The notes under the pieces are model-generated. The model was not told the origin of the DNA. It was given only the letters and a program-made list of their open reading frames with translations, and did no database searches. The position numbers were made by a program, and so were the translations under genes. This document shows, one piece after another, positions 23,838-43,298 of a stretch of 64,000 nt of DNA (its first letter is position 1; every line of letters starts with the position of its first letter). Source of the stretch: an uncultured delta proteobacterium (GTDB lineage: Bacteria; Desulfobacterota; Binatia; DP-6); contig CAWFFN010000007.1 in the NCBI GenBank assembly GCA_963815115.1, positions 96,001 to 160,000 on the forward strand, read 5' to 3'.

Positions 23838-24789
23838 GGCCAACCACCGCGCTCGCTTCGGACCGCACAATCCCGGCGAGACCTACGTCGCCCACGTGAT
23901 CGCGGAGCAGCTGGTCGACCTCGGCGAGATCCAGATGAACTACGCGACCGTGGGCGATGCTGCGTCGCCGGCGCTGCTTCTCATCCCGGGCCAGACCGAG
24001 TCGTGGTGGGGCTACGAGGCGGCGATGCCGCTGCTCGCCGACCGCTTCCAGGTGTTCGCCGTCGATCTCCGGGGCCAGGGCCGCAGCACGCGCACGCCTG
24101 GCCGCTACACGCTCGACAACATGGGCAACGATCTGGTCCGTTTCCTCGACCTCGTGATCGGGCGACCGGCGATCGTGAGCGGCCTGTCCTCGGGCGGCGT
24201 CCTCGCCGCCTGGCTGTCGGCGTACGCCAAGCCCGGTCAGGTGCTCGCGGCGCTCTGCGAGGACCCGCCGCTGTTCGCGTCGGAGGTGCGGCCGGCCGTC
24301 GCTCCCGGCATCCGCCAGTGTATCGGCCCGTTGTTCGACCTCTGGAGCAGCTTCCTGGGCGACCAGTGGTCGATCGGAGCCTGGGACGCGATGCGCGAAG
24401 GATCGGCGACTCGACTGCCGGAGCACCTGCGGTTCATCCCGGTGCCCGACGAGCCGCCCCAGAACTTGAAGGAGTACGACCCCGAGTGGGGCCGGTCGTT
24501 CTGGACCGGGACGGTCGGCGCCGCGTGCGACCACGAGCGGATGCTGCGCAGCGCCAAGGTCCCCTCGGTGCTGCTGACGCACCACATGCGCATCACCGAC
24601 GATGCCAGCGGCTTCCTGTTCGGTGCGATGTCCGACCAGCAGGCCCAGCGGGTGCAGGACCTCCTCACCGGCGCGGGCGTCGACGTGCAGTACCGGTCGT
24701 TCCCCGACGTCGGCCACTCGATGCACGGCGACAGGCCCGACCTCTACGTCGAGACCCTCTTCGACTGGGTCACGAGCATCACGGCGTGA
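23836..24789 (+). CDS. Alpha/beta hydrolase, ZenA-like (zearalenone/resorcylic acid lactone hydrolase family)
   Basis: VDLGEIQMNY, QTESWWGYE, DLRGQGRS, YTLDNMGNDLVRF, GLSSGG nucleophile, FLGDQWSIG, PQNLKEYDPEWGR; these blocks recall Rhodococcus ZenA. Confidence 0.8.
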   Translation: MANHRARFGPHNPGETYVAHVIAEQLVDLGEIQMNYATVGDAASPALLLIPGQTESWWGYEAAMPLLADRFQVFAVDLRGQGRSTRTPGRYTLDNMGNDLVRFLDLVIGRPAIVSGLSSGGVLAAWLSAYAKPGQVLAALCEDPPLFASEVRPAVAPGIRQCIGPLFDLWSSFLGDQWSIGAWDAMREGSATRLPEHLRFIPVPDEPPQNLKEYDPEWGRSFWTGTVGAACDHERMLRSAKVPSVLLTHHMRITDDASGFLFGAMSDQQAQRVQDLLTGAGVDVQYRSFPDVGHSMHGDRPDLYVETLFDWVTSITA

Positions 24790-25739
24790 GCGCATCCCGC
24801 ACGATCGACGTGCACGCCCACTACGTCCCGGCGAGCTACCGGGCGGCGCTGCTGGACACCGGCCACGGCGAACCCGACGGCTTCCCCCGGATCCCGGACT
24901 GGTCCGCCGAGGAGCACGTTGCCGCGATGGACCGGCTCGGAATCGCGACGTCGCTGCTGTCGATCTCGTCACCTGGCGTGCACCTCGCCGACGAACAAGC
25001 GGCGCGGGACCTCGCCCGCGAGGTGAACGAGGCCGGCCGACGAGCCGTCGTCGACCATCCCGGACGGTTCGGCCTGTTCGCCTCGCTCCCCCTGCCCGAC
25101 GTCGATGCGGCCATCGCCGAGATCGCGCACTGCTGCGACCGGCTCGACGTCGCCGGCTTCGCGCTGCTCACCAACATCGGGGGGACGTACCTGGGCGACC
25201 CCGCGTTCCAACCGGTCTTCGGCGAGCTCGACCGGCGCGGCGCCCGGCTGTTCATCCACCCGACCTCGCCGGCGTGCTGGGAGCACACCTCGCTCGGGCG
25301 TCCCCGACCGATGCTCGAGTTCTTCTTCGACACCACCCGTGCCGTGGTCGACCTGGTGCTCAACGGCACCGTCGCCAGGCATCCGGGAGTCGAGTTCATC
25401 ATCCCGCACGCCGGAGCGACGCTGCCGATGGTCGCCGACCGGGTCAGCGTCTTCTCCCAGCTGCTCGGCGTCGACCCCGCGGTGGACGTGCTCCGCGACC
25501 TGGGCCGACTCCACTTCGACCTCGCCGGCTTCCCGGTTCCCCGCCAGCTCGACGCGCTCCTCACGCTCACCACGATCGAGCACCTGCACTACGGGAGCGA
25601 CTATCCCTTCACCCCGGAGTTCGCCGCCGCCATGGCGAGTGAACGACTCGCCGAGCGGGGCGACCCGCCGGGTTCGCTGCTGGCCGCGCTCCGCGCCAAC
25701 ACCGATCGCCTCTTCCCCGCGTTCACTGACCGGCGCTGA
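24786..25739 (+). CDS. Amidohydrolase_2 family protein, 6-methylsalicylate/orsellinate decarboxylase-like
   Basis: IDVHAHY, LSISSPG, FASLPLPD, FIHPT, EFFFDTTRA, PHAGATLP, YGSDYPF; GTGA overlap with upstream gene. Confidence 0.8.
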   Translation: MSASRTIDVHAHYVPASYRAALLDTGHGEPDGFPRIPDWSAEEHVAAMDRLGIATSLLSISSPGVHLADEQAARDLAREVNEAGRRAVVDHPGRFGLFASLPLPDVDAAIAEIAHCCDRLDVAGFALLTNIGGTYLGDPAFQPVFGELDRRGARLFIHPTSPACWEHTSLGRPRPMLEFFFDTTRAVVDLVLNGTVARHPGVEFIIPHAGATLPMVADRVSVFSQLLGVDPAVDVLRDLGRLHFDLAGFPVPRQLDALLTLTTIEHLHYGSDYPFTPEFAAAMASERLAERGDPPGSLLAALRANTDRLFPAFTDRR

Positions 25740-25771
25740 CCAGCGACAGACGACGAAACTCGCCCTGGCGT

Positions 25772-26956
25772 TCAGAACCTCGCGGGACGGTCCGGCGTCA
25801 GGTATTCCGTGATCGCCGTGAACAGCCGCTCGCTGTAGTTCGTCGTGGTGGCCGCCGCCCGCTGCCCTTTCGTGACGGTGAGCGCGACCGAGATCCGTCT
25901 CGACGGCAGATAGGCCTGGATCGCGGTGTAGCCTTGCATCTCGGGGTTCTGAATCTCCCAGGTGTTCACGATCACGATGCCGAGCCCGTAGTAGAGGCTC
26001 TGGCTGAACCCCGGGAGCCCCGCCGTCGTCGGGGCGATGCGCTCGCGCGCGGCCGCCTTGGAGATCAACGCTCCCCTCCCGAACGCCTGCGCCGACTTGA
26101 GCACGTCGCCGATCGTCGACGTCATGATCATGCTCTCGGCGATCGACCAGGAAGGGCTCCAGAAGGTCGAATCCTCGTAGGGACCGCGGTCGGCAGTGTA
26201 CGCGTGCAGAACCGGCGGCGGGATGTCGGGCAGTGAGGAGATCCTCGTGTTGCGCAAGCCGAGCGGGCGAAGGACGCGCTTGCGGAGCAGCTCCGCCACC
26301 GGCTTGCCGGTGACGGCCTCGATCACGTTGCCGAGGATGATGAAGTTCGTGTGGGCGTAGTGAAAGCATGTCCCCGGGTCGCAGATGCGCGGGCGCGCCA
26401 GCGCGATCTCCAGCAGCTCCCGCGTCTGCCACTGGCGGAAGACGTTCGCGTACCAGTCTTTGACCCAGGCGGGGTCCTCCTGGATCCAGTCGGCGTAGCC
26501 GGAGGTCGCGGTGGCGAGCATCCTCAGAGTCACGCGATCGGCGTCGGGGAGGGCGGGAAACCAGGTGGACAGGCGGTCGTCGAGGGACAGCCGTCCGTCG
26601 TCCTGAAGCTGGAGCAGGAGGTCGATGACGTAGGGGATCGCGACCGAGCCGATGCGGAAGTTCATGCGAAGGTTCGCGGGCACCCCGTCCATCGACTCCC
26701 CCGCAGAGACGCGCGCGATCGAACGGTCGCCCAGGCTGACCCGGACGAGGGCCGCGCGCAGGTCGTCGTCCTGGACCGACCGCTCCACGATCGCCCGGAT
26801 CTCGCGGCCCGCGGCGGCGAGGCTCGTACAGCCCGACGCCGTCCGGATTCTCTCGCGCGGACAGGGCGTGACGCCGTCACCCGCGGCCGCAAAGCCGGAC
26901 GCGAGCAGGGCCGCGCAGACCGCTCCGGAAACCGCGAGGCTCCGAGATACCTTCAC
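25772..26956 (-). CDS. Secreted serine hydrolase (beta-lactamase/PBP family)
   Basis: Signal peptide, FRIGSVAI, LSLDD, VTLRMLA, FHYAHTNF; canonical SxxK Lys appears substituted (SVAI). Confidence 0.8.
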   Translation of the reverse strand: MKVSRSLAVSGAVCAALLASGFAAAGDGVTPCPRERIRTASGCTSLAAAGREIRAIVERSVQDDDLRAALVRVSLGDRSIARVSAGESMDGVPANLRMNFRIGSVAIPYVIDLLLQLQDDGRLSLDDRLSTWFPALPDADRVTLRMLATATSGYADWIQEDPAWVKDWYANVFRQWQTRELLEIALARPRICDPGTCFHYAHTNFIILGNVIEAVTGKPVAELLRKRVLRPLGLRNTRISSLPDIPPPVLHAYTADRGPYEDSTFWSPSWSIAESMIMTSTIGDVLKSAQAFGRGALISKAAARERIAPTTAGLPGFSQSLYYGLGIVIVNTWEIQNPEMQGYTAIQAYLPSRRISVALTVTKGQRAAATTTNYSERLFTAITEYLTPDRPARF

Positions 26957-27160
26957 CCCTCCCACCGAGCGTGCTCTGGTCACGAGGAACACATATCGCC
27001 TTTGCTCGAAAATCTCGCCGCGGCGTAGCTGCGCGACTTCGGGCTGATGCGCGGTGCACTCACCCTCGCCCGAGTCGGGTCCGAGTTCGACCCACCTGGC
27101 GGCGCGCTGCACGCCGCCGACCAGTGGCACACGCGAGAGGGGTGAGGTGCTCGAGCAGCG

Positions 27161-27601
27161 TCACCCCCGCGTGCCCGCTTCCAGGGCGGCGAGTCGCTTC
27201 TTCAGCGCACGCTCCTCTTCCCAGCGCGCGGTGACGTCTCGGATGATTGCCGCCGGACCGAGCAGTGTACCGTCCGGGTCGTGGAGCAGTGCGATGGTGA
27301 ACTCGACGGAGATCGACGTCCCGTCCTTCCGCACGGCCGGCACCGCGAGCACCCGGCGTCCATACCGAGTCGTTCCCGTCGCCATGGATTCTCGGTAGCC
27401 ACTCCAGTGCCGCTGCCGGAGACGCTCCGGGATGATCAGATCCAGCGTGCGACCGAGCGCTTCATCGACGCGATAGCCGAAGAGGACCTCGGCGCCCGGG
27501 TTCCACAGTCGGATGATTCCGTCGCGATCCGCCAGGATGATCGCGTCGCATGCCTCCCGCACGATCTCCCGGCACAGCCACTCGTGTGTATCCCCTGCCA
27601 T
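27161..27601 (-). CDS. Stand-alone PAS domain protein
   Basis: DAIILADRDGIIRLWNPGAEVLFGY, LDLIIPERLR..HW.GY, RKDG..ISVEF, AIIRD. Confidence 0.85.
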   Translation of the reverse strand: MAGDTHEWLCREIVREACDAIILADRDGIIRLWNPGAEVLFGYRVDEALGRTLDLIIPERLRQRHWSGYRESMATGTTRYGRRVLAVPAVRKDGTSISVEFTIALLHDPDGTLLGPAAIIRDVTARWEEERALKKRLAALEAGTRG

Positions 27602-27849
27602 TCGTTCCCCCTCGTCCCTGGTGACCGAACCCGTGACCTCGATGACCCCTCGTTGCAAGCCGGCCGGATGGAGGGTTCCGGCAGGCGCTGCGAGGTTGAC
27701 CGAAAAGTTGCGCTCCGCGACATGGAACGGCATCGTCAGGGCATGCCGGGTTCCTGCCAGCCGACCGGGTAGCGCCCCGTCTGGCGAATCTTGCGTTTGC
27801 GGCCGCGCCGCCGCGTGGTGGCCGTCGTGTCCCGGGGGGGGAGGACACG

Positions 27850-28175
27850 ATGCGCACCTTCATGATCACTCTGCTGGCCGCCGCCGTGCTGGCCGGCGTG
27901 CCGGCGCGGGCCTCGGCGCAGTGCACCACCGACGACGACGCCAACGCCGCGCGCAAGACGCTGAAGGAGTCCGCCACGATCCCGGCAACCCGGCGACGCT
28001 CTTCGAGACCGAGCTGTACGACCTGATCGCCGACCCGTACGAGCTGACCAACGTGGCGAGCGATCCCGCGAACGCGACCCGGGTCGCGACCATGGCGGCG
28101 CGGCTGCGCCAGCTGCGGCCGAACTGGCCGATCGACTCCGACCCGAACGGCCCCGATCCGGACGAGGACGAGTGA
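27850..28175 (+). pseudogene. Internally deleted secreted sulfatase-like gene relic
   Basis: RBS GAGG + signal MRTFMITLLAAAVLAGVPARASAQC, joined out of frame (~27975) to sulfatase-type C-terminus ETELYDLIADPYELTNVASDP. Confidence 0.6.
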
Positions 28176-28205
28176 CGTGAAGCGAGACGGCGGGGCGGCT
28201 CCCCC

Positions 28206-28372
28206 CGCCGTCTGGCCTTCCAGATCTGCTCGCACGGCCAGCGCCGGGCCCAGTCGAGCGAGACGAAGGGGAGAGCGCGAGGTGGCGTCCGCCGGCGGGC
28301 GCCCCTCGACGAGGGCTTCGATCTCGAAGCCGTTCGCGTGCAGGAGGCGAATCCATTCGCCGAGGGAGTTGT
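28206..28372 (-). pseudogene. C-terminal fragment of a SAM methyltransferase
   Basis: LGEWIRLLHANGFEIEALVE..PPADATS then, after a frameshift, FVSLDWARRWPCEQIWKARR; no N-terminus. Confidence 0.55.
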
Positions 28373-28424
28373 AGGTATCGGAGGTATTGGCAGACAGCTC
28401 CACGGGGGGAACCTGACCGGGGGG

Positions 28425-28500
28425 CTCGAGCAGTCGGACTCAACCTCCTCCGCGTGCCGCCATGGGCCCTGCGGGCCGATGACCTCGGTCTTGTACGGCC
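28425..28500 (-). mobile_element. IS3-family transposase fragment
   Basis: Minus strand reads YKTEVIGPQGPWRHAEEVE, resembling the IS3 OrfB motif YKxEVIxxxGPWRxxxxVE. Confidence 0.45.
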
Positions 28501-28587
28501 GATCACGGACTCGGCCAGGGCATTACCCTAGGAGTCGCCGCTGCCGACGGAGGGCTCGATGCCTGCTGCCGCGAGCCGTTCGGTGTA

Positions 28588-28675
28588 GCGGATCGACAGT
28601 GGCCTCACCGGTCTTCAAGACCGCGAGGTCCCACCTGGTGCGCGATCGAAGGTTCGATCTTCGTCCCGATCGTCA
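28588..28675 (+). tRNA. Degenerate tRNA-Sec-like sequence (probable pseudo-tRNA)
   Basis: CGGT-CTTCAAG-ACCG arm with TCA anticodon at 28615-28617, long variable region, GAAGGTTCGATCTTC T-arm-like; acceptor and D arms poorly paired, no CCA. Confidence 0.4.
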
Positions 28676-29114
28676 CGAGGGATCTCGCGGGCTCGAGGGA
28701 AAGAGCGGGCCGCCGAGAGCGGCCACGAGCAGCAACCAGACGAGTCGAACGAGACGCCTGCGCCGGCTTGCAGAGGCTGGCATCGCCATCTCTACGCGCG
28801 ACCCGCCCGCGCGGATGCATGCGGTTGCCGTGGTTCGGGGAGGAGCCGAGCTGCATCCTCTCTGCCGCGCCTCGAGGGGTGCGGGCGGTCACGGGCCGAG
28901 AGAGCGCCCCGCCCGGGGCGACGGTCGTGCGCGGTCGGAGGCCGTCCTCCGGACTCCTTCGGGGAGCCAGGACCGTCTGTCGCTGGGCGGCCGCGTCCCG
29001 GTCGCGTGCCTCGGCCGGGCGACGCGCCGGGTGCGCGCCGACGGCGAGGAGCGCGCGTGCGCCGCGTCCCAGCATGGTTCAACAGGCTGTCTTCTGAGCA
29101 GCTTGACAGACGGG

Positions 29115-29519
29115 GTGCGAGGCACCTTTCGCACCGACGAGCCGTCCACGGAGATCGTCCGGAAGGCGCTCGTCGACGAGTTCCAGCGCGGGGGACGTCG
29201 GGTCGTCTCGGGAGGAGGCGAGACCGCGGACGTGCCGATGGTCGTGACGCTGCGGCGCTTCTGGGCATCCCCCAGCGTGGGCACGCTCAGCGAGGTGGCG
29301 CAGCTCGACGCGGAGATCCTCCTCGGAACGGTGCCCGACCCCGTCCAGTTCCCCGTCAGCGGGTTCTTCAAGACGACGTTCGAGCGCCGGATCATCGGAA
29401 CGTTCCGGTTCGACCAGGCCGCCGACCTGAACGGAGCGCTCGCCGACTTCGTTCGCAACCTGACCCTCGACCCGCACCTGCGGGCGGCGTTCGAAGCGGG
29501 CACGTCCGCGACGAGATGA
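29115..29519 (+). pseudogene. 3' portion of a YajG-like lipoprotein/hypothetical gene lacking a clear start
   Basis: Protein-like stretch STEIVRKALVDEFQRGG...LRRFW...LNGALADFVRNLTLDPHLRAAF; upstream part of the ORF looks non-coding. Confidence 0.4.
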
Positions 29520-29748
29520 GTACCGGCGCGCGGCGCGCCGCTCGGATCGGGTGCCACGTGCGTGGCCCTCTTCGAGCGTCGCCCCACCAGCCCCGTCGGA
29601 TGCTCCGCTACCACCCGGTCGGGCAGCGCCAAGAACCTGCGGGGAACGCTCGCGATCCGGGATACCGACGGCGGCCTCCACACCACCGGCGCCGTCGATC
29701 TGCGATGACCACGGAGGGACCGACGACGATCCGCCAGGCCACTGCCAC

Positions 29749-30070
29749 GATGGTATTGCTCCTCCGGTTAGCGCCCCGAGTGGCGGGAGCCGGCGGCAGC
29801 ATCGGGAGCGCCGCGATCTTCGACGGCTCGAATCAGGACATCGCCGCTCGCAGCATCCGGAACGTCGGAACGAGTCCCCTCCTGGTCGTCGCGACCATCT
29901 TCGACGAATCGGGCGACCCGCTCCCTGCCGCCAAGGACAGATGCACTGACAGGCCGATCGTTTCGGGCGGCCAATGCAGGGTGAATGCGCGGATCCCGAC
30001 GGGCGTCGCGTCCGCATGCTCCGCGACGGCTCGTTCCGGCAGCATCAAAAACGCGCGAGAGGACGCTGAC
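29749..30070 (+). pseudogene. Degenerate small secreted protein resembling 14078..14440
   Basis: IRNVGTSPLLVVATIFDESG...C..C segment resembles VTNVGTKPADVTVQIVG; no clean end. Confidence 0.3.
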
Positions 30071-30265
30071 GGTCGGCTCTCTCGCCGTCGCCAGCGACCT
30101 CGAGCGCCGCGCCGAGCTTCGCTAGGGCGGGCCGCGAGGGCCGAGGAGCTGTATCTCCGTTCCCGAGACCTCGCGCTGCGCCACCGACGGTCGCGCAGGG
30201 CCCGCGAGCCTGGGACGCGTGGGCCGACCTCTGCTCCGAGGCCGGCCATGATCGCGGTCGGGTCC

Positions 30266-31396
30266 CTAGCGCGGCACGAGGCGGACGACGCCGTTGTCGG
30301 CGCTATCGGGTCCGCGCCCGGCCAGTGCGACCGCCGTGCGCAGCAGCGCGACGTTGAGACCGAGCCTGCCGCCCTCGTCACGCCCCGGGAAGCTGCCGAT
30401 CAGCGCGCCGGTCCGTGTCGAGTAGAGGTACGCCGCGCCTTCCTCTCCGTCGGCCAGCGACGTGCACGCCGCCCCGACGAGAACGGCGTCGCGCCGCACC
30501 GCCACCGCGTTCCCGAAGCAGCCGGCGTTGGGGTCGTCCGACACGATCGTCCGGCGCAGGCGGCCGCGCCGGTCGAACAGGTGAACGGCTCCGCGGCCGC
30601 CGGATGCCCCGGGGGCGCTGACGGCGATCACGGGTCCGTCGGCGGCGATCGCGCTGCCGAAGGAGTCCCCGGCTTCCTGGGAGCCGACGACGGTCTCGAC
30701 CGCGCCCGTCTCGGGATCCAGGATCGACACGATGCCGTCCCCCGACACGCTGCCGTCCGGGTTGCCGAGACCCCAGTGCGAGATCACGAGGCGCCGTCCG
30801 ACACGCGCGAGGGCGGAACGGAGAAAGCGCTGGGGCTCCGGATTCGGCACCGTTCGCAGCAGGGCTCCGGTCCGAGCGTCGAACACGTGGATGCCGCCGG
30901 TTCCCGGCACCGAACTCCCGCTGTCGAGCAGCGCAACTCGCTGGTTCATGGCGACGAGGGCTGCGATCGATGAGACCGAACTCGGAGCCTGGTACGTGGC
31001 CCGTACGACCGCCGTCGCCGGCTCCACGCGCAACGCCTCGGGCCCTGGTGCTCCCACGAGCCGTGCGACGAGGACATCGCGCCCAATCGTGGCCACCAGG
31101 CTCCCGAAGCCGGTGTCCTCGAGGTCGTACAGCGACCACACGGTCTCGCCGGTGCCGGGATCGAGGGCCTCCACGAAGTTGCAGAACTCCCCTGCGCTGC
31201 CGACCACGAGACGGCCCCCGAGGACGGCCATCGAATGGCCGTAGGTGTTCTCGATGTCGCAATAGGGCTGGGCCGGTCCGGTGACGATGGTCGCTCCCGC
31301 CACCGCGGCGAGGGTGAGGAGCGCGGCCGAGGCGGCGAGATACGCACGCGGCCGGCGGCGAGCGAGCGGCGAACGCACGAGCTCCTCGGGGAGCAA
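30266..31396 (-). CDS. Secreted beta-propeller protein (FG-GAP/PQQ-like repeats)
   Basis: Signal-like N-terminus; repeated FGS/FGN..VA, GAVHLFD, DARTG, DPETG motifs. Confidence 0.7.
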   Translation of the reverse strand: MLPEELVRSPLARRRPRAYLAASAALLTLAAVAGATIVTGPAQPYCDIENTYGHSMAVLGGRLVVGSAGEFCNFVEALDPGTGETVWSLYDLEDTGFGSLVATIGRDVLVARLVGAPGPEALRVEPATAVVRATYQAPSSVSSIAALVAMNQRVALLDSGSSVPGTGGIHVFDARTGALLRTVPNPEPQRFLRSALARVGRRLVISHWGLGNPDGSVSGDGIVSILDPETGAVETVVGSQEAGDSFGSAIAADGPVIAVSAPGASGGRGAVHLFDRRGRLRRTIVSDDPNAGCFGNAVAVRRDAVLVGAACTSLADGEEGAAYLYSTRTGALIGSFPGRDEGGRLGLNVALLRTAVALAGRGPDSADNGVVRLVPR

Positions 31397-31683
31397 CGGT
31401 CGTGCCGTCTCCGGACGCGCACTGGCGGGGCACCGTCGCCGCGCGAGTCTGCAACGTCGCGGCGGCCCCGCAGTGCTGCAGGCTGCTTCGTACGATCGGG
31501 ATGATCCACGAGGCCGACGTCCAGCCTACCGTGTGCCCCATCTTCCCGTCCCTCGGGCCCGGTCACGACAGCCGTGCTTGCGCGGCTTGTACCACAGGCT
31601 GCGCTCGCTGACGCCGAGGAGCCGTCCTCCGGAGCCCTTGGGAGGCCGTCCTTCGTGTGCGCCGCGCCGCGGCTTCGCCCGGG

Positions 31684-34600
31684 TCAGCAGCTGGCCGCGC
31701 CGTCGCCAGCGCGCCGACGGACCACCCGCTCGAGGACCTCGAAGAGCTCCCGCGCCTTGATCGGCTTCGAGACGTATCCGTCCATCCCCGCGGCCAGGCA
31801 GCGCTCGCGATCGCCCATCATCGCATGTGCCGTCATCGCGATGATGGGCACGTGAACCGAGGCATCGGCCGGGAAAGCGGTGGCGGCGCCGTCGCCGCGA
31901 ACGGCTGGCGTCTGGGCGCCGCCGCTCGTCGGTACGGCGAGGTGTTCATCACCCCGGATCTGCGCGGTGGCCTCGAACCCGTCCATCACGGGCATCTGCA
32001 CATCCATCAACACCGCGTCGAACGGCTCGCGCCGAACCGCGGCCAGGGCTTCCAGTCCATTGCTCGCCAGCGCGACCGTGCACCCGTGCTTCTCGAGCAG
32101 CCGGACTGCAAGACGTTGATTCACGATGTTGTCCTCGACGAGCAGGATATGCCTGTGCACCTCCACACCGTGCGGTGCCGCGCCGGCTCGATTCGGCGCC
32201 GCCGGCGGACGGTCAACGCGGTCGCCGGACGCTCGCAGGGTGCGCGCAACGGCATCGAGCAGATCGCTCGGCTTGACCGGCTTCATCAGATGCGCCGCGA
32301 TACCGAGCGCTCTACACCGTGCGCCATCGCCGGCCTGACCGCCGGAGGTCATCATGATGAGCGCCGGTGGGTCGGGCAGGGCGCTCTGCGCAATCCGGGC
32401 GGCAAGCGTGAATCCGTCCATCTCGGGCATCTCCTCGTCGAGCAATACCAGGGCGAAGCCGTGACCGGCCCGTACCGCGCCGTCCAGGGCCTCGAGCGCG
32501 GCGGCGCCACTCGCGACCGCGACGGGGCGCATCCCCCCAGCGCAGCACCGTCTCCTCGAGGATGCGGCGGTTGGTGACGTTGTCGTCGACGACGAGGACC
32601 GGCAGATCGCGCAGCATCGCCGGCGTCCTGATCGCGGGCGCCGCCGCGGCGATCCCGAAGCACGCGGTGAAGCGAAAGCTGCTTCCGTGTCCCACGGCGC
32701 TGTCGAGCTCGATGTCTCCCTCCATCAAGTTGACCAGCCGCCTGGCGATCGTGAGCCCGAGGCCCGTGCCGCCATACTTGCGCGTCGTCGAGCCGTCCGC
32801 CTGCTCGAAGGCCTCGAAGATGCCCCGTTGCTTCTCGGCCGCGACGCCGATCCCCGTATCGCGAACCGTGAAGCGCAACTCGGTCCGCGGGCAGGCGCTC
32901 GGAGGCTCGGATCTGGACAGGCCTGTCCCTGCCGCGGGCGGACGATCACCGGGCGGGCTCGCGCTCGCCTGCTCGACCTCCACGGCCACCTCGCCCTGCG
33001 GCGTGAACTTGATGGCGTTCCCGACGAGATTGACGAGGATCTGCCTGAGGCGCCCCGGGTCGCCCACGAGGTTCTCGGGCACATCGGGCAGGACTCGCCA
33101 GGTGAGCTCCAGCCCCTTCTGATGGGCGCACAACGCCTGAACCTTCATGACGTCGCCGAGGACATTCGGGAGGTTGAACTCGACCGGATCGAGCTCCAGC
33201 TTTCCGGCCTCGATCTTGGAGAAATCGAGTATGTCGTTGATGACCGACATCAACGAGTCGGCCGAGACCTTCACCATCTCCAGGTATTCCCGCTGATCGG
33301 GCTCCAGCGTCGTGTCCAGGGCCAGGTCCGTCATGCCGATGATGCCGTTCATCGGTGTACGGATCTCGTGACTCATGTTGGCGAGAAAGTCGCTCTTGGC
33401 GCGGCTGGCCGCTTCGGCCGTTTCCCTGGCCTCCCGCAGCTGCATCTCCACTCGCTTCCGTTCGGTGATGTCACGGACGATGCCGACCGCGTGCCAGCGG
33501 CCATCGAGGTGGATCGGCGCGAGCGATAGCTCGATCGGTATCTCATCGCCGCCGTTGCGCCGTCCCACGACCTCCCTCGTCTTGCCGATGGCTGCGCCCT
33601 CGCCCGTGAGCCAGAACGCCTCGAGACCCCGCGCCGCCGCCTCCCGGAACGTCGCCGGCGCCACGAGCTCATGGAGATCGCGCCCCAGCACCGCGCCCTC
33701 CGAGTATCCGAAGATCGTTTCCGCCGCGCGGTTCCAGAACGCCACGCGGCCGTCCGCATCCATCATGACGATGCCATCCTGCGCCGACGCGGTGATGGTG
33801 CGGAATCGCTCTTCACTGTCGCGCAGCGCCTGCTCCACGAGCCTGCGCTGGGTGACGTCACGCGCGATCGCCGAAGCGCCCGTGACGACGCCCTCGGTGT
33901 CCCGGACCGGTGACAACTTCAGCGAGACGGCGACCGGGGTGCCGTCCTTGCGACGGCGCGTCGCCTCGTAGTCAGCGATTCGCTGGCCATCCTTCACCCG
34001 TTCGAGAAGGCGGAGCGTCTCCGTCGGGTCGGAGCACAGGAGGGTGGCGACCGGCATGCCGATCGCCTCCTCTGCGGTGTACCCGTAGACGTGCTCGGCG
34101 CCGCGATTCCAGCTGAGGATCGTGCCGTCGAGTGTTTCACTGATGATGGCGTCCTCCGAGGACTCCACGATGGCTGCCAGGAGACGGCGCTCGTCCTCGA
34201 CCCGCTTGAGCTCGGTGATGTCCCGGGCCACCGCGGCGAAGCCGATCGTCCGCCCGTTTTCCACGATGAGCTGGACGTTGTGCCCGAGCCAGAGCTCCGT
34301 GCCGTCCTTGGCGATCGCAGGCACCTCGCAATAGGTCGTCGGGATTCGCTCGACGAATTGCCGCAGATAGAAGCGGCCGATTCGCCGGCGCGAATCCGGT
34401 CGGACGAGGACGAGGAAGTGGATGCCCATCATCTCGCTCTCGCTGTATCGCATGAGGCGCAGGGCGATCGGATTGCAGTAGGTCACGTGACCCGTGTCGT
34501 CGGTCCGATAGATGATGTCGGTCGCGTGTCCGAGTATCTGCTCGTAGCGCGCCGCGCTCGCCGCACTCGTGGTGTGGATGCCGTAACCGGCGAGCAGCGC

Positions 34601-35326
34601 GGCGGCGAGCGCCAGCAGGCCCAGCATCTCGGCCTGGCTCAAACTGTGCTCGCCGAATACCTCCAGCACGTAGGACAGGAGCGCGATGCCGCCGCCGAAC
34701 AGCACCAGGTCCACGACGTCGAGCGGATGGGTCTGCTGCTCGCGATAGTCCGGCAGGTGGCGATACACGAAGTAGACGCCGAGCAGGCCGACCGGAACGT
34801 TGACGTAGAACACGCCGCGCCAATTGAGATAGGAGACGATCAGCCCGCCGGCGACCGGCCCGACCATGGGGCCGATCAGGCCTGGAATGGCGACAAAGCT
34901 CATGACGGGGACGAGATCGGCCTTGTCGTAGGTGCGCGCCAGCGTCATGCGACCGACCGGCATCATCATGGCACCGCCCGCGCCCTGCAGGATGCGGCAG
35001 GCCACCAGCATCTCGAGGCTGGTCGAGAGGCCGCACAGCACCGAGCCCACGGTGAAGAGGCCGATCGCCGTGGCGAACACGCGCCGCGTGCCGAACCGGT
35101 CGGCCATCCAGCCGCTCACCGGCATGAAGACGGCGAGGCTCAGTGTATAGCTCGCCAGCACCGACTTCACGCTGAGCGGCGCCACGTCCATGGCCCGCGC
35201 GATGGCTGGCACCGCGGTGTTGAGGATCGTCGTGTCGAGCGACTGCATGAAGAACGCAACGGCGACCAGCCACGGCAACAGGCGCTTGATGGCATCGTTT
35301 GGCGAAGCGGTGGTTGTCGCGGCCAT
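31684..35326 (-). CDS. Hybrid sensor histidine kinase: half-MFS (DHA2) domain + 3 PAS + HisKA + HATPase + 2 REC; one +1 frameshift in a G6 run at ~32535
   Basis: MQSLDTTILN, GWMADRFGTRR, RILQGAGG, GPMVGPVAGG (MFS); three PAS-PAC; SHEIRTPMNG; NLVGNAIKFT, DTGIG, GGTGLGL; VLVVDDN/LLDEEMP and LLVEDN/LMDVQMP receivers. Confidence 0.85.
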
Positions 35327-35530
35327 CGTCAGTCCGCCGGTCTGAAAGGAGCCTGCCCGTGGGCGTCGAACAGGGCGTCCAGGAATTCCGGGATCAGCGG
35401 CATGCTCCGCGTCCCCTTGACGCAGGGTGGCTCCGGGGCAGCCGGTGCGCACTGAAGCGGGGCCGCACACGCTGCTCGTACTTGGGGACGAGCTGAGGCA
35501 ATACATTGATCCCCAGAGAGGAGATCCTCC

Positions 35531-35899
35531 ATGCCGTATCTCCGTGCAGTGCTCCTTGCGACCATCATCACGATGGGGATGGCTCCTGCGGCACACTCAG
35601 CGACCGATCGGGAGAAGCTCAGCAAGCTCATGAGGGACGCCGCACCGAGATTCGGCAACGTCTTCAGCGCACAGGCCGTCAGCGATGCGTTGCAGAAGTC
35701 GAAGACGGTGTGCGTCTGCTTCGATCCCCAACAGAACGCGGCGCTGGTTGGGTTCATGGTGTTCTTGGGCCCCCGGACAGCTGGCGAGGGCTTCACAGCA
35801 CTGTGCCTGACGCCGGTGTTCACGTCAGATGGTGCCGTGACCGGCGGGACGGGCGCCTGTGCCGAGTTCACCCCCATCCCGGGCAGCAACGCGCCGTGA
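35531..35899 (+). CDS. Small secreted hypothetical protein
   Basis: GAGGAG RBS, signal MPYLRAVLLATIITMGMAPAAHS, 4 Cys. Confidence 0.6.
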   Translation: MPYLRAVLLATIITMGMAPAAHSATDREKLSKLMRDAAPRFGNVFSAQAVSDALQKSKTVCVCFDPQQNAALVGFMVFLGPRTAGEGFTALCLTPVFTSDGAVTGGTGACAEFTPIPGSNAP

Positions 35900-36029
35900 A
35901 TGTGCCCTTCCGTCGGCGTCGGCAACGAACCGGCGCGGAGCATTTCTCCTCCGAGGCCGTCGGAGGCCGTCCTTCGAGCTCCTTCGGGAGCACCCGCGAG
36001 GATCGGGCCTTTGTGCGGACTATCTGGTC

Positions 36030-36200
36030 GATCCGAGCACCGACGTCGACGTGCCCTCGAGCTACACGAACTTCGGCGAACGCGCCGTCTACCTGAGCGT
36101 TCCCGGCCAGGTGCAGGCCGTCCTGCGGTGCTCCGCCGACGATCTGGGGCCCGCGGGACGCGACGCCTTCCACGGCCGGGGACGGGTGAACGCGATCGCG
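36030..36200 (+). pseudogene. Internally deleted S8 (subtilisin-like) peptidase relic
   Basis: PSSYTNFGERAVYLSVPG joined directly to QVQAVLRCSADDLGPAGRDAFHGRGRVNA; the GTSMA catalytic-Ser segment that normally lies between them is absent. Confidence 0.6.
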
Positions 36201-36280
36201 ATGACCCGGGGAGTGATCGCCCTGGCGTCGCGCAGCTCGCATCGCTGCACGTGAACCACGGTCACCGAGTGGTGCGTGCG

Positions 36281-37771
36281 CTACCGGTCGGGCCCGTGCC
36301 GAACGGCGCGCAAGCCGGACAGATCGCGCGCGACCATCGTGTTGCGATCGGACACGCTGCTGCCGAGCGCAAACTGGGGCCACAGGCCGGCTATCTCCTG
36401 CCGGCTGCGTTCGCTCCACGCCCGGGCGAGCCGGCTCCGCGTCTTGTGGAAGTTCAACGCGAAGCCGCCGGTGTAGAGCCGCAGGAGGGAGAAGCCGCCC
36501 GGATACTCCTTGCCCGCGGCGATCTCCTGCATCGTGACCCCGGGAGCCACCGCGCTGATCGTGCGCTTGTTGCGATGCGTGTGGCCTGCGTGATGCAGAA
36601 ACAGTCCGGGAGTCTGCGAGTAGTCGTCCAGGATCGTCGCCACCTGTCCGGCCTCGAGCCTGTTGCTCGCCGAGGTCGGGAACGGTGACTTCTCGACGAT
36701 GAGAGGATGGTGCCCGAACACGATCGTCGGCTGCTCGCGCTCCCTGGCGAGCTCGGCGCGGAACCAGGCGAGCTGTTCGGCGGAGAGCGCGCCGGCATCG
36801 CTGCCGCGTCCGGGCTTGTCGTAGGTGTCGAGGCCGATGACCCGGAGGCCACGGAGTTCGCGACTGAAGTAGGTCGGCTCGTCTCCCGGGAAGAAGTGAT
36901 CGTGGAAGCAGTCGTTGCCCTGCCATTGGCCGATACGACACGCCGCGTACGCCTCACCGGTATGCGCGCGATCGTGATTGCCGCGCACGACGAAGTAGTC
37001 CCGGCGATACTTGCCGAATCGTCTGAGCAGCTTCCCCGCTCTGCTGAGGTCGACCGGCGCGGCTTCGGCCGTGATGTCGCCGGCGGCAAGCAGGAACGAT
37101 GCACCGAGCGCGCTCGCATCATGGACGAGCGACTCGAGCATCACCTCGGGATAGGGCGGGAGGCCGGGAGCCTGCTGGATCCCGACGATCCCCGTGCCTC
37201 CGAGGAGCCCGGCTGTCGTCTCGCCCATGTGGAGGTCGTTGCACAGCGCGATGGAGAACAGGAAGCGGCCCGGCGGCGGCTCCGGAACGGTGAAGCTGTA
37301 TGGACCGCCGGTCATCAGACCGAAGTCGGAGGTGCCGACGGCGTTCCCGCTGATGAGCGTGAACGGAGTCGGGGATACCGGAATATCGTTGGAGCGGGCC
37401 TCGTAGTAGTACGTCCGTCCCGGCTCGAGGCCTTTGAGCTCGACGTAGTGATACGGCGTGTCGCGGAAGCGACCCCCCGCCGCCCGGTTCAACCGCTGGG
37501 GGTCCGTTCCCCAGAAGACCGCGCCGTCGGCCGGAGCGGGTTCCATCCGACCCAGGCCGTCATCGGTTCCGGTGTATCCCGTGTACCAGGTGATGACCGC
37601 CCGGTCTTCGGTGAGGGTCACGAGCTCGAGGTTCACCGGCGACACGGCGTCCTTACGGCTGCGTGCGGCGGCAACCCCGTTGTCGAACAGGCGGCGAGCG
37701 AAGAATGGTGAGGCCGCGGCTACGGCGGTCCAGCGCAGGAAGTCCCGTCGCGTGAAGTCACAACCAGGCAC
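36281..37771 (-). CDS. Tat-exported metallophosphoesterase with N-terminal Fn3/purple-acid-phosphatase-like domain
   Basis: FTRRDFL Tat motif; NDLH, AGDIT, GNHD, GHHP, GHTH. Confidence 0.88.
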   Translation of the reverse strand: MPGCDFTRRDFLRWTAVAAASPFFARRLFDNGVAAARSRKDAVSPVNLELVTLTEDRAVITWYTGYTGTDDGLGRMEPAPADGAVFWGTDPQRLNRAAGGRFRDTPYHYVELKGLEPGRTYYYEARSNDIPVSPTPFTLISGNAVGTSDFGLMTGGPYSFTVPEPPPGRFLFSIALCNDLHMGETTAGLLGGTGIVGIQQAPGLPPYPEVMLESLVHDASALGASFLLAAGDITAEAAPVDLSRAGKLLRRFGKYRRDYFVVRGNHDRAHTGEAYAACRIGQWQGNDCFHDHFFPGDEPTYFSRELRGLRVIGLDTYDKPGRGSDAGALSAEQLAWFRAELAREREQPTIVFGHHPLIVEKSPFPTSASNRLEAGQVATILDDYSQTPGLFLHHAGHTHRNKRTISAVAPGVTMQEIAAGKEYPGGFSLLRLYTGGFALNFHKTRSRLARAWSERSRQEIAGLWPQFALGSSVSDRNTMVARDLSGLRAVRHGPDR

Positions 37772-38104
37772 GGACCAAACCTACCAATCGCCGACGTCGC
37801 GTGGCGGCCGTCTCGCGGTGCATGGGAGCGGTCTCCTCCGGCCGCATCGCGCCTGTCTCACCATGGCCCTGAGGGAGTGCCAGAGTCGTTCGGGGTGGGT
37901 CAACGATGGACTTGCCTCTCGTCGGCGTCCCGGGCTCGTGATGCCGCACGTGCGTCCCGGCGTCGCGCGCTCCGCGGACACGCCGAGGTCAGGACTCCGG
38001 TTGCCGCTCCGGGGCCTGCGGGGTCACCATCGCCAGACGCGAGCCACGCGGCAACGCGGAGGGGCGTCGACCGCCGTCGACCGCCCTGCGGACCTCCTTC
38101 CCGT

Positions 38105-39028
38105 TCAAGGAGTACGGGCGACGCGGAAGCCGAAGCGGGGGAAGTGCACGACCACGGCGCCGAGCGCGGGCTCCTCGCGGCGGATGGCGATGTCCTCGGC
38201 CGACGACTCGACCAGGGTCCCGGCGATGGGATCGAAGCCGTAGTCGTCCGCCGTGACGGTCACGGCCATGCCGGCCGCCAGCCCGTTCGGCTCCCGGGAA
38301 TCGACCGTGCCCGGCGCGGCCGGCTCCGCCGCGCGCGCGACGGCGAGCGCCTCGGCCGCGGACACGTCGCGCCGCTCGCCCTGGCCCATGGCCTCCAGGC
38401 GCGCCATCCAGCCGGCAACGCGGCCGAACTCGCCGAGCAGCGCCTGCGCTCCGGGCGCGACGCGCAGGAACCAGAGCGGGTGGTAGCACGCGGCATCGGC
38501 CAGGCTGAAGGCGCGGCCGAGCAGCCATTGACGGCCGTCGGCGAGCTGCGAGTCGAGGGTGGCGATCAGCGCGCGCACCTGCTCGCGGGCGTGCGGCGCC
38601 TGCTTCGGGATGTCGCGGAAATCGCGTCCGGGCATCATCTTGCTCCGGTCCTCGATGAACGCCGGCGGCACGAGCGCGCCGATGTCCGCGAACACGACCG
38701 CCACGACGGGCATGAAGAGCAGGCGGTCGGCCCACAGGTTCCAGGCATGCGCGGTCCCGACCGATCCCTCGGGGTAGATGGTCGGCTCGGGCGCCACGCG
38801 CTCGAGCAGGCGCACGATGCACTGCGTGTCGCAGTAGACGTCGGCGCCGATCTGGAGCACGGGAATGCGCCGGTAGCCGCCGGTCAACGGAACCAGGTCC
38901 GGCTTCGGCATGATGCTCGGCTGCTCGACGGCGCCCCAGGCGAGTCGCTTGTGCGCGAGCACCTTGCGGATCTTCTCGGAGAACGGCGAGGTGTCGTAGT
39001 GGTGCAGCAGCAGCGCGGGCTGCGTCAT
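38105..39028 (-). CDS. Glutathione S-transferase family protein
   Basis: HHYDTSPFSEKIR, LTGGYRRIPVLQIGADVYCDT, FSLADAACY, VHFPRFG. Confidence 0.9.
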   Translation of the reverse strand: MTQPALLLHHYDTSPFSEKIRKVLAHKRLAWGAVEQPSIMPKPDLVPLTGGYRRIPVLQIGADVYCDTQCIVRLLERVAPEPTIYPEGSVGTAHAWNLWADRLLFMPVVAVVFADIGALVPPAFIEDRSKMMPGRDFRDIPKQAPHAREQVRALIATLDSQLADGRQWLLGRAFSLADAACYHPLWFLRVAPGAQALLGEFGRVAGWMARLEAMGQGERRDVSAAEALAVARAAEPAAPGTVDSREPNGLAAGMAVTVTADDYGFDPIAGTLVESSAEDIAIRREEPALGAVVVHFPRFGFRVARTP

Positions 39029-39054
39029 GAACCTTCCCTCATGAACCTTCCCTC
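39025..39054. repeat. 14-bp tandem duplication TCATGAACCTTCCC x2 at the GST start/RBS
   Basis: tcatgaaccttccc tcatgaaccttccc tc. Confidence 0.8.
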
Positions 39055-39055
39055 C

Positions 39056-39084
39056 TTGACAGCGCCCGGGCCGGCGCGTATCAA
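39056..39084 (+). promoter_or_regulatory. Putative sigma70 promoter of pyr operon
   Basis: TTGACA (39056)-17 nt-TATCAA upstream of the PyrR leader. Confidence 0.5.
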
Positions 39085-39110
39085 ACTGCAGCTTCAGCCG
39101 ATCGCCCGGC

Positions 39111-39815
<705 letters not shown>

Positions 39816-39825
39816 GGGAGGCACC

Positions 39826-40814
39826 ATGGCGTTCACCCGGCGTCATCTGCTCGGGCTCGAGGGCGTGCCGAGGGAGGAGATCGTCGCCATCCTCGATACC
39901 GCGGCGTCGTTCAAGGAGATCTCGGAGCGCGACATCAAGAAGGTGCCGGCGCTGCGCGGCAAGACGATCATCAACCTCTTCTACGAGGCCAGCACGCGCA
40001 CGCGGACCTCCTTCGAGATCGCGGCCAAGCGCCTGTCGGCCGACACCATCAACATCAGCGCGTCGAGCTCGAGCGCCAGCAAGGGCGAGACGCTGGCCGA
40101 TACGGCGCGCAATCTCGAGGCCATGAAGCCCGACGCGATCGTCGTGCGCCACCCCGCGTCGGGTGCGTGCGCCTTCCTTGCCCGACACGTCGGCTGCCCC
40201 ATCCTCAACGCCGGGGATGGCTGCCACGAGCATCCCACGCAGGCGCTCCTCGATTGCCTCACCATCCGCGAGCGGCGGGGCGAGATCGCCGGGCTCACGG
40301 TGGCGATCGTCGGCGATCTGCTGCACAGCCGCGTCGGGCGCTCCAACGTGCACGCCCTGCGGACGCTGGGCGCGCGGGTGCGGCTGGTGGGACCGCCCAC
40401 GCTGCTGCCGCCGGAGTTCGCCACCCCCGGCGTGGAGCTGCACTCGCGGCTGGCCGACGGCGTGCGCGACGCCGACGTCATCATGATGCTGCGCATCCAG
40501 CGCGAGCGGCAGGGGGCGAACTTCTTCCCCTCGCTCGAGGAGTACTCGCACTACTACTGCCTCACCGAGGAGATGGTGCGCCTGGCACGCCCGAGGTGAT
40601 CATCCTGCACCCCGGCCCGCTGAACCGCGGGCTCGAGATCGCCAGCGCCGTCGCCGACGGCCCCTACTCGGTGATCATGAACCAGGTGACCAACGGCCTG
40701 GCGGTGCGGATGGCGCTCCTCTACCTGCTCGTCGCGCGCAGCAAGGCCGTGGATGCCGTCGAGCTCGAGCCGGTGACGGAGCCGGTGCGCGGCCGGGGTG
40801 GGGTGCGCGGATGA
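39826..40814 (+). CDS. pyrB: Aspartate carbamoyltransferase, frameshift at ~40590
   Basis: [30 protein letters not shown]; continues in another frame with [10 protein letters not shown]...[11 protein letters not shown]. Confidence 0.92.
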
Positions 40815-42125
40815 GCGGCCGGACGCTCCTGGCCGGCGGGCGCCTGGTCGATCCGCTCGCCGGCACGGTCGGGGCCGAGGATCTGCTGATCGACGACGGG
40901 CGGATCGCCGCGCGCCTCCCGGCGGGCACGCCCGTCGACGACGCCGCGGTGCTCGACGCGCGCGGGCTGCTGGTGCTGCCCGGGCTGGTCGACATGCACG
41001 TGCACCTGCGGGAGCCGGGGCAGGAGTACAAGGAGACGGTCGCGACCGGGGTGGCGGCGGCGCTCGCGGGCGGCTTCACGTCGATCGCCTGCATGGCCAA
41101 CACCGACCCGGTGAACGACAGCGGCGCGGTCACGCGCTTCATCCTGGAGCGTGCGGCGCTGGCCGGCGGCGCGCGGGTCCATCCCATCGGGGCGCTCTCG
41201 CTCGGGCTCGCCGGGGAGCGGCTGGCCGAGATCGGCGAGATGCACCGGGCGGGCATCGTCGCCGTCTCGGACGACGGCCGCCCCGTGATGCACGCCGGGC
41301 TCATGCGCCGGGCGCTCGAGTACACCCGGCTCTTCGACCTCCCCGTCATCGCGCACGAGGAGGACGAGCACCTGTGCGCGGGCGGCGTGATGAACGAGGG
41401 GGCGATGGCGGTCCGTCTCGGGTTGCGCGGGCGGCCGGCGGTGGCGGAGGAGGTGATGGTGGCGCGCGACATGGCCCTCGCCGAGCTCACGCGGCGGCCG
41501 CCTGCACGTGGCCCACGTGAGCACGGCGCGCGCCGTCGAGCTGGTCCGGGACGCGCGTGCCCGCGGCGTCCGGGTCAGCGCCGAGGCCACGCCGCACCAT
41601 CTCGTGCTCACCGAGGAGGCGGTCGGCGACTACGACGCCAACGCCAAGATGGCGCCGCCGCTGCGCACGGCGGCCGACGTCGCGGCGCTGCGTGCCGGCC
41701 TGGCGGACGGCACGATCGAGGCCATCGCGAGCGACCACGCGCCGCACCACCGGGACGAGAAGGACGTCGAGTTCGATCAGGCGGCGAACGGCATCGTCGG
41801 GCTCGAGACGGCGCTGGCGCTGGGGCTGCGGCTGGTTGCCGACGGGGTGCTCGACCTGCCCGCGCTGGTGGAGCGCATGAGCGCGGGCCCGGCACGGCTC
41901 CTCGGCCTGCCCGCGGGGACGCTCGCCGTCGGCGCCGCGGCGGACGTGACCCTGGTCGATCCGGAGCGGCGCTGGAAGGTGTCGGCGCGCGCCTTCCGGT
42001 CGAAGGCGCGGAACACGCCGTTCGAGGGCTGGGAGCTCGTCGGCCGCGTGACGGCGGTGCTGGTCGGCGGTCGCCTGGTGTACGACGAGCGGCCGGCGAT
42101 GCCGACGCTGCGGGTGGCGTCCTGA
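40811..42125 (+). CDS. pyrC: Dihydroorotase, frameshift at ~41492
   Basis: [18 protein letters not shown]; then HVST, EATPHHL, KMAPPLR, ASDHAPH in second frame. Confidence 0.92.
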
Positions 42126-43269
42126 TGGCGCATGGCACCGCCATCCTCGCCCTGGCCGACGGGACGATCTTCCGTGGCCGTGCCTTCGGCGCCGTCGGGC
42201 GAGGCGGCCGGCGAGCTCGTCTTCAACACGAGCATGACGGGCTACCAGGAGATCCTCACCGACCCGTCGTACGAGGGGCAGCTCGTCGCCATGACCTACC
42301 CCGAGATCGGCAACGTCGGCGTGAACCGCGAGGACGTCGAGTCGCGCCGCCCCTTCGTGCGCGGGTTCATCGTGCGCGAGTACCGCGAGGTGCCGCTCCT
42401 CGTGGCGGGCCGAGCAGAGCCTGGGCGCGTACCTCGCGCACTGGGCATCCCGGGCATCGAGGGCATCGACACGCGTGCGCTGGTGCGCCACCTGCGCGAC
42501 CACGGGTCGCAGGAGGCGGTGCTGTCGAGCGTCGACCTCGACCCGGCGCGGCTGGTGCAGCGGGCGAAGGACACCCCCGGCCTCGTGGGCCGCGACCTGG
42601 TCAAGGAGGTCACGTGCGCCGAGCCGTACGACTGGGAGCAGGGTCCCTGGAAGCTCGGCGGCTACCTGACGGCGGACGAGATCGCGGCCGTGCTCGGCCG
42701 GCCGTCGTTCAAGGTCGTCGCCTACGACTACGGCATCAAGCGCAACATCCTGCGCAACCTGGTGGGAGCCGGGTGCGCGGTGCGCGTCGTGCCTGCCACG
42801 ACGCCGGCGCGCGAGGTGCTCGCGCTGCGCCCCGACGGCGTCTTCCTCTCCAACGGCCCCGGCGATCCCGACGCGGTCGCGGGCGCGCCGGAGAACGTGG
42901 CCCGGCTGCTCGGCAGAGGTGCCGGTGTTCGGCATCTGCCTCGGCCATCAGATCCTCGGCCTGGCGCTCGGCGGGCGTACCTACAAGCTCAAGTTCGGCC
43001 ATCACGGCGGCAACCAGCCGGTGAAGGACCTGACGACCGGCAAGGTCGAGATCACCGCCCAGAACCACGGCTTCGCCGTCGACGTGGATTCGCTCGGCGA
43101 TCTCGCCGAGCTGACGCACGTCAACCTCAACGACCAGACCGTGGAAGGGCTGACGGTGAAGGGCCAGCCCACGTTCTCGGTGCAGTACCATCCCGAGGCG
43201 TCGCCCGGCCCGCACGACGCGCGCTATCTGTTCCGCCGCTTCGTCGAGATGATGGAGCGCTGGCGGTGA
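42125..43269 (+). CDS. carA: Carbamoyl-phosphate synthase small subunit, several indels (~42198, ~42396, ~42441, ~42918)
   Basis: [50 protein letters not shown]. Confidence 0.92.
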
Positions 43270-43298
43270 GCCTGCGGCTCGCCCCCTGGTGACGATCG

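Follow-up and report, generated by a model that had tools for sequence, protein, structure and literature searches.

The window analysed here, a stretch of 64,000 nucleotides from an uncultured delta proteobacterium (GTDB lineage Desulfobacterota, Binatia, DP-6; assembly GCA_963815115.1, contig CAWFFN010000007.1, positions 96,001 to 160,000), carries on its minus strand a gene in which the N-terminal half of a transporter from the major facilitator superfamily (MFS) runs in frame into a PAS-rich hybrid histidine kinase. The open reading frame (ORF) extends over 32312..35596 and, translated from the ATG at 35326, gives a product of 1004 amino acids (aa); because the relative P0241 begins with nearly the same residues as the fusion protein, this ATG is supported as the start. 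Pfam recognises in the product MFS_1 (E 7.5e-37), at profile positions 2-214 of 347 only, followed by three PAS domains, HisKA (1.4e-22) and HATPase_c (1.7e-24), the core of a hybrid histidine kinase, with the phospho-acceptor His stretch SHEIRTP in the translation. An earlier note on this DNA had described the gene as a candidate transceptor, with the MFS half, the three PAS domains, HisKA, HATPase_c and two receivers in a single stop-free frame. The quoted MFS motifs and the HisKA H-box are all found in the translation, and the frame is continuous as far as HATPase_c, but most of the receiver part (the rest of receiver 1 and receiver 2) sits in another frame.

The transporter half is clearly akin to the N-domain of DHA2-type transporters. 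For residues 1-250, identity is 92% (238/259) with P0241 and 75% with P0004; the latter is a protein of 568 aa that its source names as a member of the EmrB/QacA subfamily and that, among PDB sequences, matches EmrB (2.1e-31), QacA (9.6e-28) and also EfpA and NorC. The Asp of transmembrane helix (TM) 1 is intact, as are the stretches that we, following the earlier note, take to be motifs A (GWMADRFGTRR), B (RILQGAGG) and C (GPMVGPVAGG). An AlphaFold2 model of residues 1-255, built on alignment A1 (50 of 81 sequences), has eight helices at a mean pLDDT (predicted local distance difference test) of 74.9, with TM7-8 reaching just 51-70; the helices were taken from this model after a crude hydropathy script had missed TM6. 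Foldseek overlays the model on one half of EmrB, EfpA and QacA, with a TM-score of 0.81 on the query and 0.43-0.46 on the targets, one such match being 8zal_J (E 1.1e-10, TM-score 0.81 on the query and 0.44 on the target). According to excerpts of the cryo-EM study of QacA, DHA2 proteins consist of two bundles, TM1-6 and TM9-14, with the TM7-8 pair inserted in the loop that connects them (PMC10425836). A break after TM8 therefore comes where one domain ends, and on the cytoplasmic face of the membrane, and the topology that had been proposed for the gene (a 6+2+6 arrangement broken at a cytoplasmic domain boundary) agrees with those excerpts and with the eight-helix model. The fusion protein therefore resembles the 14-TM drug:proton antiporters of the DHA2 family in sequence, in motifs A, B and C and in the fold of TM1-8, but differs from them in holding TM1-8 only: the model has eight helices, the Pfam match stops at 214 of 347, and the rest of the domain is encoded nowhere else in the genome. 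Since TM9-14, which are needed for alternating access, are deleted, the protein is not classifiable as a transporter.

The point at which one parent gives way to the other can be placed within a few codons. In DNA and protein alike, the sequence ceases to resemble the MFS orthologues after ...LLAGYGI (GGCATCC) at about 34577; within three codons of this point it starts to resemble the kinase orthologue (...HTT SAASAARYEQ), so that the switch (~34576) is found where it had earlier been placed, at ~34575. The window reads ...GYGI followed by HTTSAASAARYEQ, i.e. ...LLAGYGI HTT SAASAARYEQILGHATD; at the same place the MFS orthologues read ...GYGIRASLTAFPLL..., i.e. ...LLAGYGIRASLTAFPLLNLGLFKIRTF, and go on with TM9-14, and the kinase P0078 reads ...EANLASVASAARYEQ, i.e. 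...IEANLASVASAARYEQILGHATD. About 12 residues of the kinase juxtamembrane linker are lost at the joint, and the frame is kept. In a relative encoded outside the window, P0124 (1494 aa), the same PAS1 (...RYRQIVDHATDIIYRTD...) is preceded by another N-module, which is joined at the same position and consists of a pair of TM helices with an outside domain and a coiled coil. Exchange of the input module just before PAS1 thus recurs naturally in this kinase family, and the joint in the window lies at that permissive site.

In the nearest relatives both parents are separate genes. On the kinase side, P0078 (1151 aa) is 87.4% identical by tblastn over 681 residues (P0078 192-872), and its residues 869-1151 match a shifted frame of the window at 83.7%. 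It carries 188 extra N-terminal residues that belong to no Pfam family and contain about six hydrophobic stretches by reading, or seven partly overlapping peaks on a crude hydropathy plot; an N-terminus of this type is shared by P0123 (74% identity over 96% of P0078 residues 1-330) and, more distantly, by P0125 (35%). The fusion protein is like P0078 and P0123 in the order of its domains (three PAS, HisKA, HATPase_c and, across the frame shift, two receivers), at 87% identity from the PAS1 cap to the end, but has the MFS half in place of the membrane module of ~188 residues and a linker shorter by ~12 residues. On the transporter side, a scan of metagenome contigs confirmed 547 relatives, of which the best 80 (69-86% identical) were kept. 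The match to P0004 reaches at least residue 560 (of 568) in 72 of these 80 loci. The remaining eight run into a contig end; in seven this end lies 38 or more residues beyond the break, and in one (L049) no more than 5. Beyond TM8, 79 of the 80 orthologues go on as MFS; the contig end of L049 lies too near the break to tell. P0241 reads ...GYGIRATLTAF past TM8, and its odd tail is matched at 75-78% by the MFS C-half DNA of L013, L029 and others when this is read in a shifted frame, so that its gene, too, continues as MFS.

The combination of the two parts was seen once. A database search in which 7999 candidates of 552-1757 aa were scored gave 146 proteins at E<=0.001, the best 120 of which were listed, and among the matches listed MFS occurs together with HisKA/HATPase_c in one of the 146, the window's own protein. 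The genomes of 40 relatives gave, among the matches listed, no strong match covering both halves; the sole one to cross the joint comes from G026 (query 12-332, 26% identity, 58.8 bits), where the frame has 526 aa, an ordinary MFS length. A transporter-kinase fusion of this kind was found in none of the 40 relatives and at none of the 80 MFS loci. Species-representative genomes scanned with P0078 yielded kinases at 35-54% identity only and no orthologue, and a representative search with residues 151-420 gave 150 best matches that are all multi-PAS proteins with their best stretches in PAS, which makes it uninformative on other MFS-PAS fusions. A tblastx comparison of four metagenome loci with the window detected no flank synteny beyond 34544-35419. 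No description of an MFS-histidine kinase fusion was found in the literature, which is not proof of absence.

The pieces that the two halves lack are absent from the organism's own genome (6.9 Mb, rated 100% complete). A tblastn search of the whole genome with the missing MFS C-half gave 0 hits at E<=1e-3, and the same search with the missing kinase N-terminus found only paralogues of 28-32% identity. With neither piece present, there is no reciprocal product. The parts of the gene are collected in Table 1; the three stretches listed there for HATPase_c are presumably its conserved boxes.

Table 1. Parts of the fusion gene and their positions in the window.
Feature	Position	Strand	Basis
TM1-6 N-domain and linker pair TM7-8 of a DHA2/EmrB-QacA-type MFS protein; codons 1-250; TM9-14 absent	34577..35326	-	Pfam; identity to P0241 and P0004; model; Foldseek
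Fusion joint, codons ~251-254 (HTTS), in frame	34566..34576	-	MFS likeness stops, kinase likeness starts
Three PAS domains	33446..34565	-	Pfam PAS_9 6.1e-45, PAS 1.2e-41, PAS_4 6e-38, three stretches each; 87% to P0078
HisKA (dimerization and histidine phosphotransfer domain, DHp), H-box SHEIRTPMNG	33203..33400	-	Pfam HisKA 1.4e-22; translation
HATPase_c catalytic domain; NAIKF, DTGIG and GGTGLGL stretches visible	32666..33064	-	Pfam 1.7e-24; translation
Six-G run, frame shift within receiver 1	32533..32538	-	Translation compared with orthologue
Receiver 1 (split by the shift), receiver 2 and stop codon	31684..32605	-	Pfam Response_reg 4.9e-42 on ORF 31684..32532; LPVLVVDD upstream of the shift

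The gene thus has two breakpoints, one in each parent; the sequences beyond them are missing from the genome, and the nearest relatives keep the parental genes apart. We consider that these observations are best explained by a lineage-specific fusion that arose through deletion or illegitimate recombination and in which the half-transporter serves as a substitute membrane anchor, a reading to which we assign a probability of roughly 0.6. Such an event would have removed the 3′ half of the MFS gene (TM9-14), the first ~188 codons of the kinase gene and anything that lay between them, the lost part of the kinase being a putative multi-helix membrane module together with ~12 residues of the juxtamembrane linker. 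The fused gene would now use the promoter and start codon of the MFS gene. Its predicted product is an inner-membrane protein of eight helices, with both ends of the membrane part inside, that leads directly into PAS1-3 and the DHp and catalytic domains, and that would include the two receivers (~1213 aa) if the frame shift at the six-G run is a consensus error. This protein would work like the parent kinase: the cytoplasmic PAS domains would take the input, the DHp dimer would autophosphorylate on His, and the phosphoryl group would pass to a receiver Asp and on to a histidine phosphotransfer protein or a response regulator. The half-transporter would stand in for the lost membrane module as an anchor and, lacking its C-domain, would be incapable of alternating-access transport. 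An accidental fusion, recent and amid deletion relics, had been entered in the earlier note as a caveat; with the fusion unique, the relatives separate and the relics 3 kb away, this caveat has become the best-supported explanation.

Several observations weigh against the fusion-and-anchor reading. The age of the event, called recent, is bounded only by a relative that is 92-93% identical. The join is unusually clean, in that it keeps the frame, follows TM8 exactly and comes immediately ahead of the PAS1 cap, and a random deletion would rarely yield such a product; this hints at selection for a working protein, but clean cases are also the ones that a scan notices. As to the parental genes as neighbours, a close kinase lies near the MFS gene in none of the 80 loci, and the four weak matches, in three loci, reach only 25-28% identity. 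The MFS half is no outlier among its 80 orthologues. Where conservation reaches 95% or more (119 columns), it deviates at two (I68M and G206D), compared with a median of 1 and a maximum of 5 in the orthologues, and the end branch leading to it measures 0.16, the median being 0.13. It differs from P0241 at 15 positions, which a script polarised as 12 window-derived and 3 P0241-derived changes and which on manual re-reading became 9 and 3, with 3 ambiguous (positions 104, 149 and 174); the 9:3 asymmetry is not significant (binomial, about 0.07). The window-derived changes themselves count for the reading: two of them, I68M and G206D, fall at columns that do not vary in the 80 orthologues and a third, R140P, at a column conserved at 93%, and together these changes give a weak hint of relaxed constraint on the MFS half. 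Against it, finally, no contig among those listed from four public read runs spans 34484-34587, the exact pieces nearest the joint being 34304-34454, 34333-34483 and 34588-34738.

This last observation bears on a further explanation, namely that the assembly is at fault, through a mis-join or a collapsed consensus, and that the true genome has separate MFS and kinase genes. The public reads were compared in four runs, none of which contained half of the sampled words, and as no listed contig crosses the joint, they give no direct verdict on it. The local consensus is poor, as described below, and the fused protein is recorded only from this contig, both of which would suit an artefact. On the other side, exact short contigs from the two halves of the gene occur in the same public run at similar depth, and the genes to the left and right of the fusion have matches of 88-94% DNA identity in the same genus (G001/G003), which places both flanks in one genus. 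Moreover, there is no repeat at the joint, none of the other contigs carries the missing halves in a genome whose completeness is rated at 100%, and a mis-join would not favour an in-frame connection at two domain borders. We therefore regard an artefact as improbable.

The frame shift raises the question of whether the gene is alive. The six-G run at 32533-32538 (ctgcgctggggggatgcgc) shifts the frame within receiver 1. The fusion ORF then continues out of frame for about 70 codons and stops at 32312; what remains of receiver 1, as well as receiver 2, is encoded in another frame by ORF 31684..32532, the receiver Asp residues being present. Because the two frames meet at the G run, the earlier description of two receivers in one ORF is true only if the shift is read through, which gives a protein of about 1213 aa. 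The orthologue P0078 reads LRWGMRP at this place, corresponding to five G, one fewer than in the window, and no listed read contig of the four public runs crosses the run. In the same window, at 39826-43289, carA and pyrB (each the sole copy in the genome) and pyrC are likewise split by single-base indels (at 40587, 41491, 42197, 42396, 42446 and 42915) relative to three of three genus relatives, and rpoB, elsewhere in the genome, is intact. Since the sole carA and the sole pyrB, and also pyrC, are broken nearby, the shift at the G run is most likely a local consensus error, and probably does not reflect decay. More generally, since even essential genes carry single-base indels in this stretch, a frameshift here should count as evidence of decay only where accurate reads are at hand.

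It is accordingly unlikely, in our view, that the fusion arose as proposed but is now dead or dying, with a real frameshift in the receiver, a decaying MFS half and no useful protein. Besides the shift itself, the relics of genes in the neighbourhood and the nine window-derived changes in the MFS half, two of them at invariant columns, would fit such a fate. So would a short-read contig from run X1 (414 nt, 34925-35349, depth 3.3, otherwise identical) in which the 11 nt at 35121-35131, flanked by gcc-g repeats, are absent, so that the reading frame would be lost from about codon 66 onwards; as a single contig of low depth, this variant is no more than a hint that broken alleles circulate. The kinase half, however, shows neither an excess of change nor a lost motif: window-derived and P0078-derived changes number 20:14, 17:18 and 16:13 with three outgroups, so that it evolves at the same rate as P0078, and all readable catalytic and receiver motifs are intact. 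Judged from these counts and motifs, the kinase core is probably still usable.

The function claimed in the earlier note, that of a transceptor, can be set against known links between transporters and kinases. CbrA/CrbS-type proteins join a complete SLC5 (SSS) transporter domain through a STAC linker to a PAS-kinase and are conserved across species. The fusion protein resembles them in placing a membrane domain of transporter fold N-terminal to a PAS-containing histidine kinase, but it has half a transporter and no STAC domain, and it occurs in one genome. In the UhpC/UhpB system an MFS-type sensor acts with a separate kinase; the MFS fold feeding a two-component kinase is common to both cases, but UhpC and UhpB are separate full-length proteins without fusion. 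Transporter-kinase fusions as such are known: CbrA is cited as one in PMC11109136, and the ammonium sensor Ks-Amt5 is described as an Amt domain fused to a histidine kinase that serves as a sensor (PMC5764959). Ks-Amt5 is like the fusion protein in having a membrane transporter domain joined to a kinase, but it belongs to another transporter family, has a complete domain and has been characterised experimentally; by Pfam and the model, the window's protein contains half of the domain set that a CbrA-like or Amt-kinase-like protein would have.

In a working transceptor the MFS N-domain would bind a solute or a proton and signal through TM8 into PAS1, and two N-halves might pair in an MFS-like manner within the kinase dimer. 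The topology is right for this, the break lies at a domain border, motifs A, B and C have been kept along with the TM1 Asp, and the clean, in-frame join sits at the point at which N-modules are exchanged in this kinase family. Nonetheless, we consider such a function very improbable, because the fusion is known from one genome only, the nearest relatives of both halves are separate full-length genes, the loss of ~12 linker residues means that the helical coupling of the parent kinase was not inherited, and I68M, R140P and G206D strike conserved MFS columns. In a variant of this idea the transceptor is newborn: one deletion would have attached the proton- or substrate-responsive N-domain of a drug pump to a PAS kinase, at the swap site, and paired N-halves would gate signalling. 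Its chance is, in our estimate, slighter still. The earlier note had itself named the pattern that would speak against its proposal, namely separate full-length MFS and kinase genes in relatives, a unique fusion and a decaying MFS half: the first two are what we observe, the fusion being unique among all that was searched, and for the third there is a weak hint only. The transceptor function is left unsupported and has low odds.

The fusion locus is a deletion-prone, variable stretch. The region 24000-38100 of the window is not syntenic with four genus relatives, and the adjoining 38115-42998 (GST-like, pyrB, pyrC and carA) is common to all four at 82-83% DNA identity. About 3 kb past the end of the kinase lies a 68-nt partial copy of the selenocysteine tRNA gene (28599-28667), the full gene being on another contig (L177, 274-369); the copy has hits of 86-88% in every genus genome, presumably their selC genes, and ARAGORN found no tRNA at this place. 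It could be the scar of an element once integrated at selC. Close by, at ~28400-28530 on the minus strand, two frames encode a C-terminal scrap without a Pfam hit that looks transposase-like, and 27960-28175 on the plus strand encodes the final ~70 residues of a protein resembling sulfatases (SGSH_C, with an E of 2.4e-4 that stays below the cut-off); both look like relics of genes. A stand-alone protein with a single PAS domain (27164-27859, minus strand; PAS_4 E 9e-13) is encoded near these relics. Intergenic repeats of the GGAGGCCGTCCTTCG type, 88% identical between copies, occur at 28931-28963, 31632-31655 and 35953-35988, so that two copies flank the fusion gene on either side and the third is 3 kb away; they may be REP-like (repetitive extragenic palindromic) or terminator-like elements. 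Divergent from the fusion gene, and with a ~200-bp upstream region in common with it, is a plus-strand ORF at 35531-35899 (122 aa) that belongs to no family and has a signal-peptide-like start and a GGAG ribosome-binding site. Scans of the fusion region for Rfam families, tRNAs, promoters and terminators gave nothing useful.

One fusion of this kind does not establish a class of MFS-based transceptors. What the locus documents is a case in which the membrane input module of a sensor kinase proved replaceable in one step, just before PAS1. For the diversification of two-component sensors its interest is modest; in addition, it is a natural construct with which to ask whether half of the MFS fold can stand alone in the membrane.

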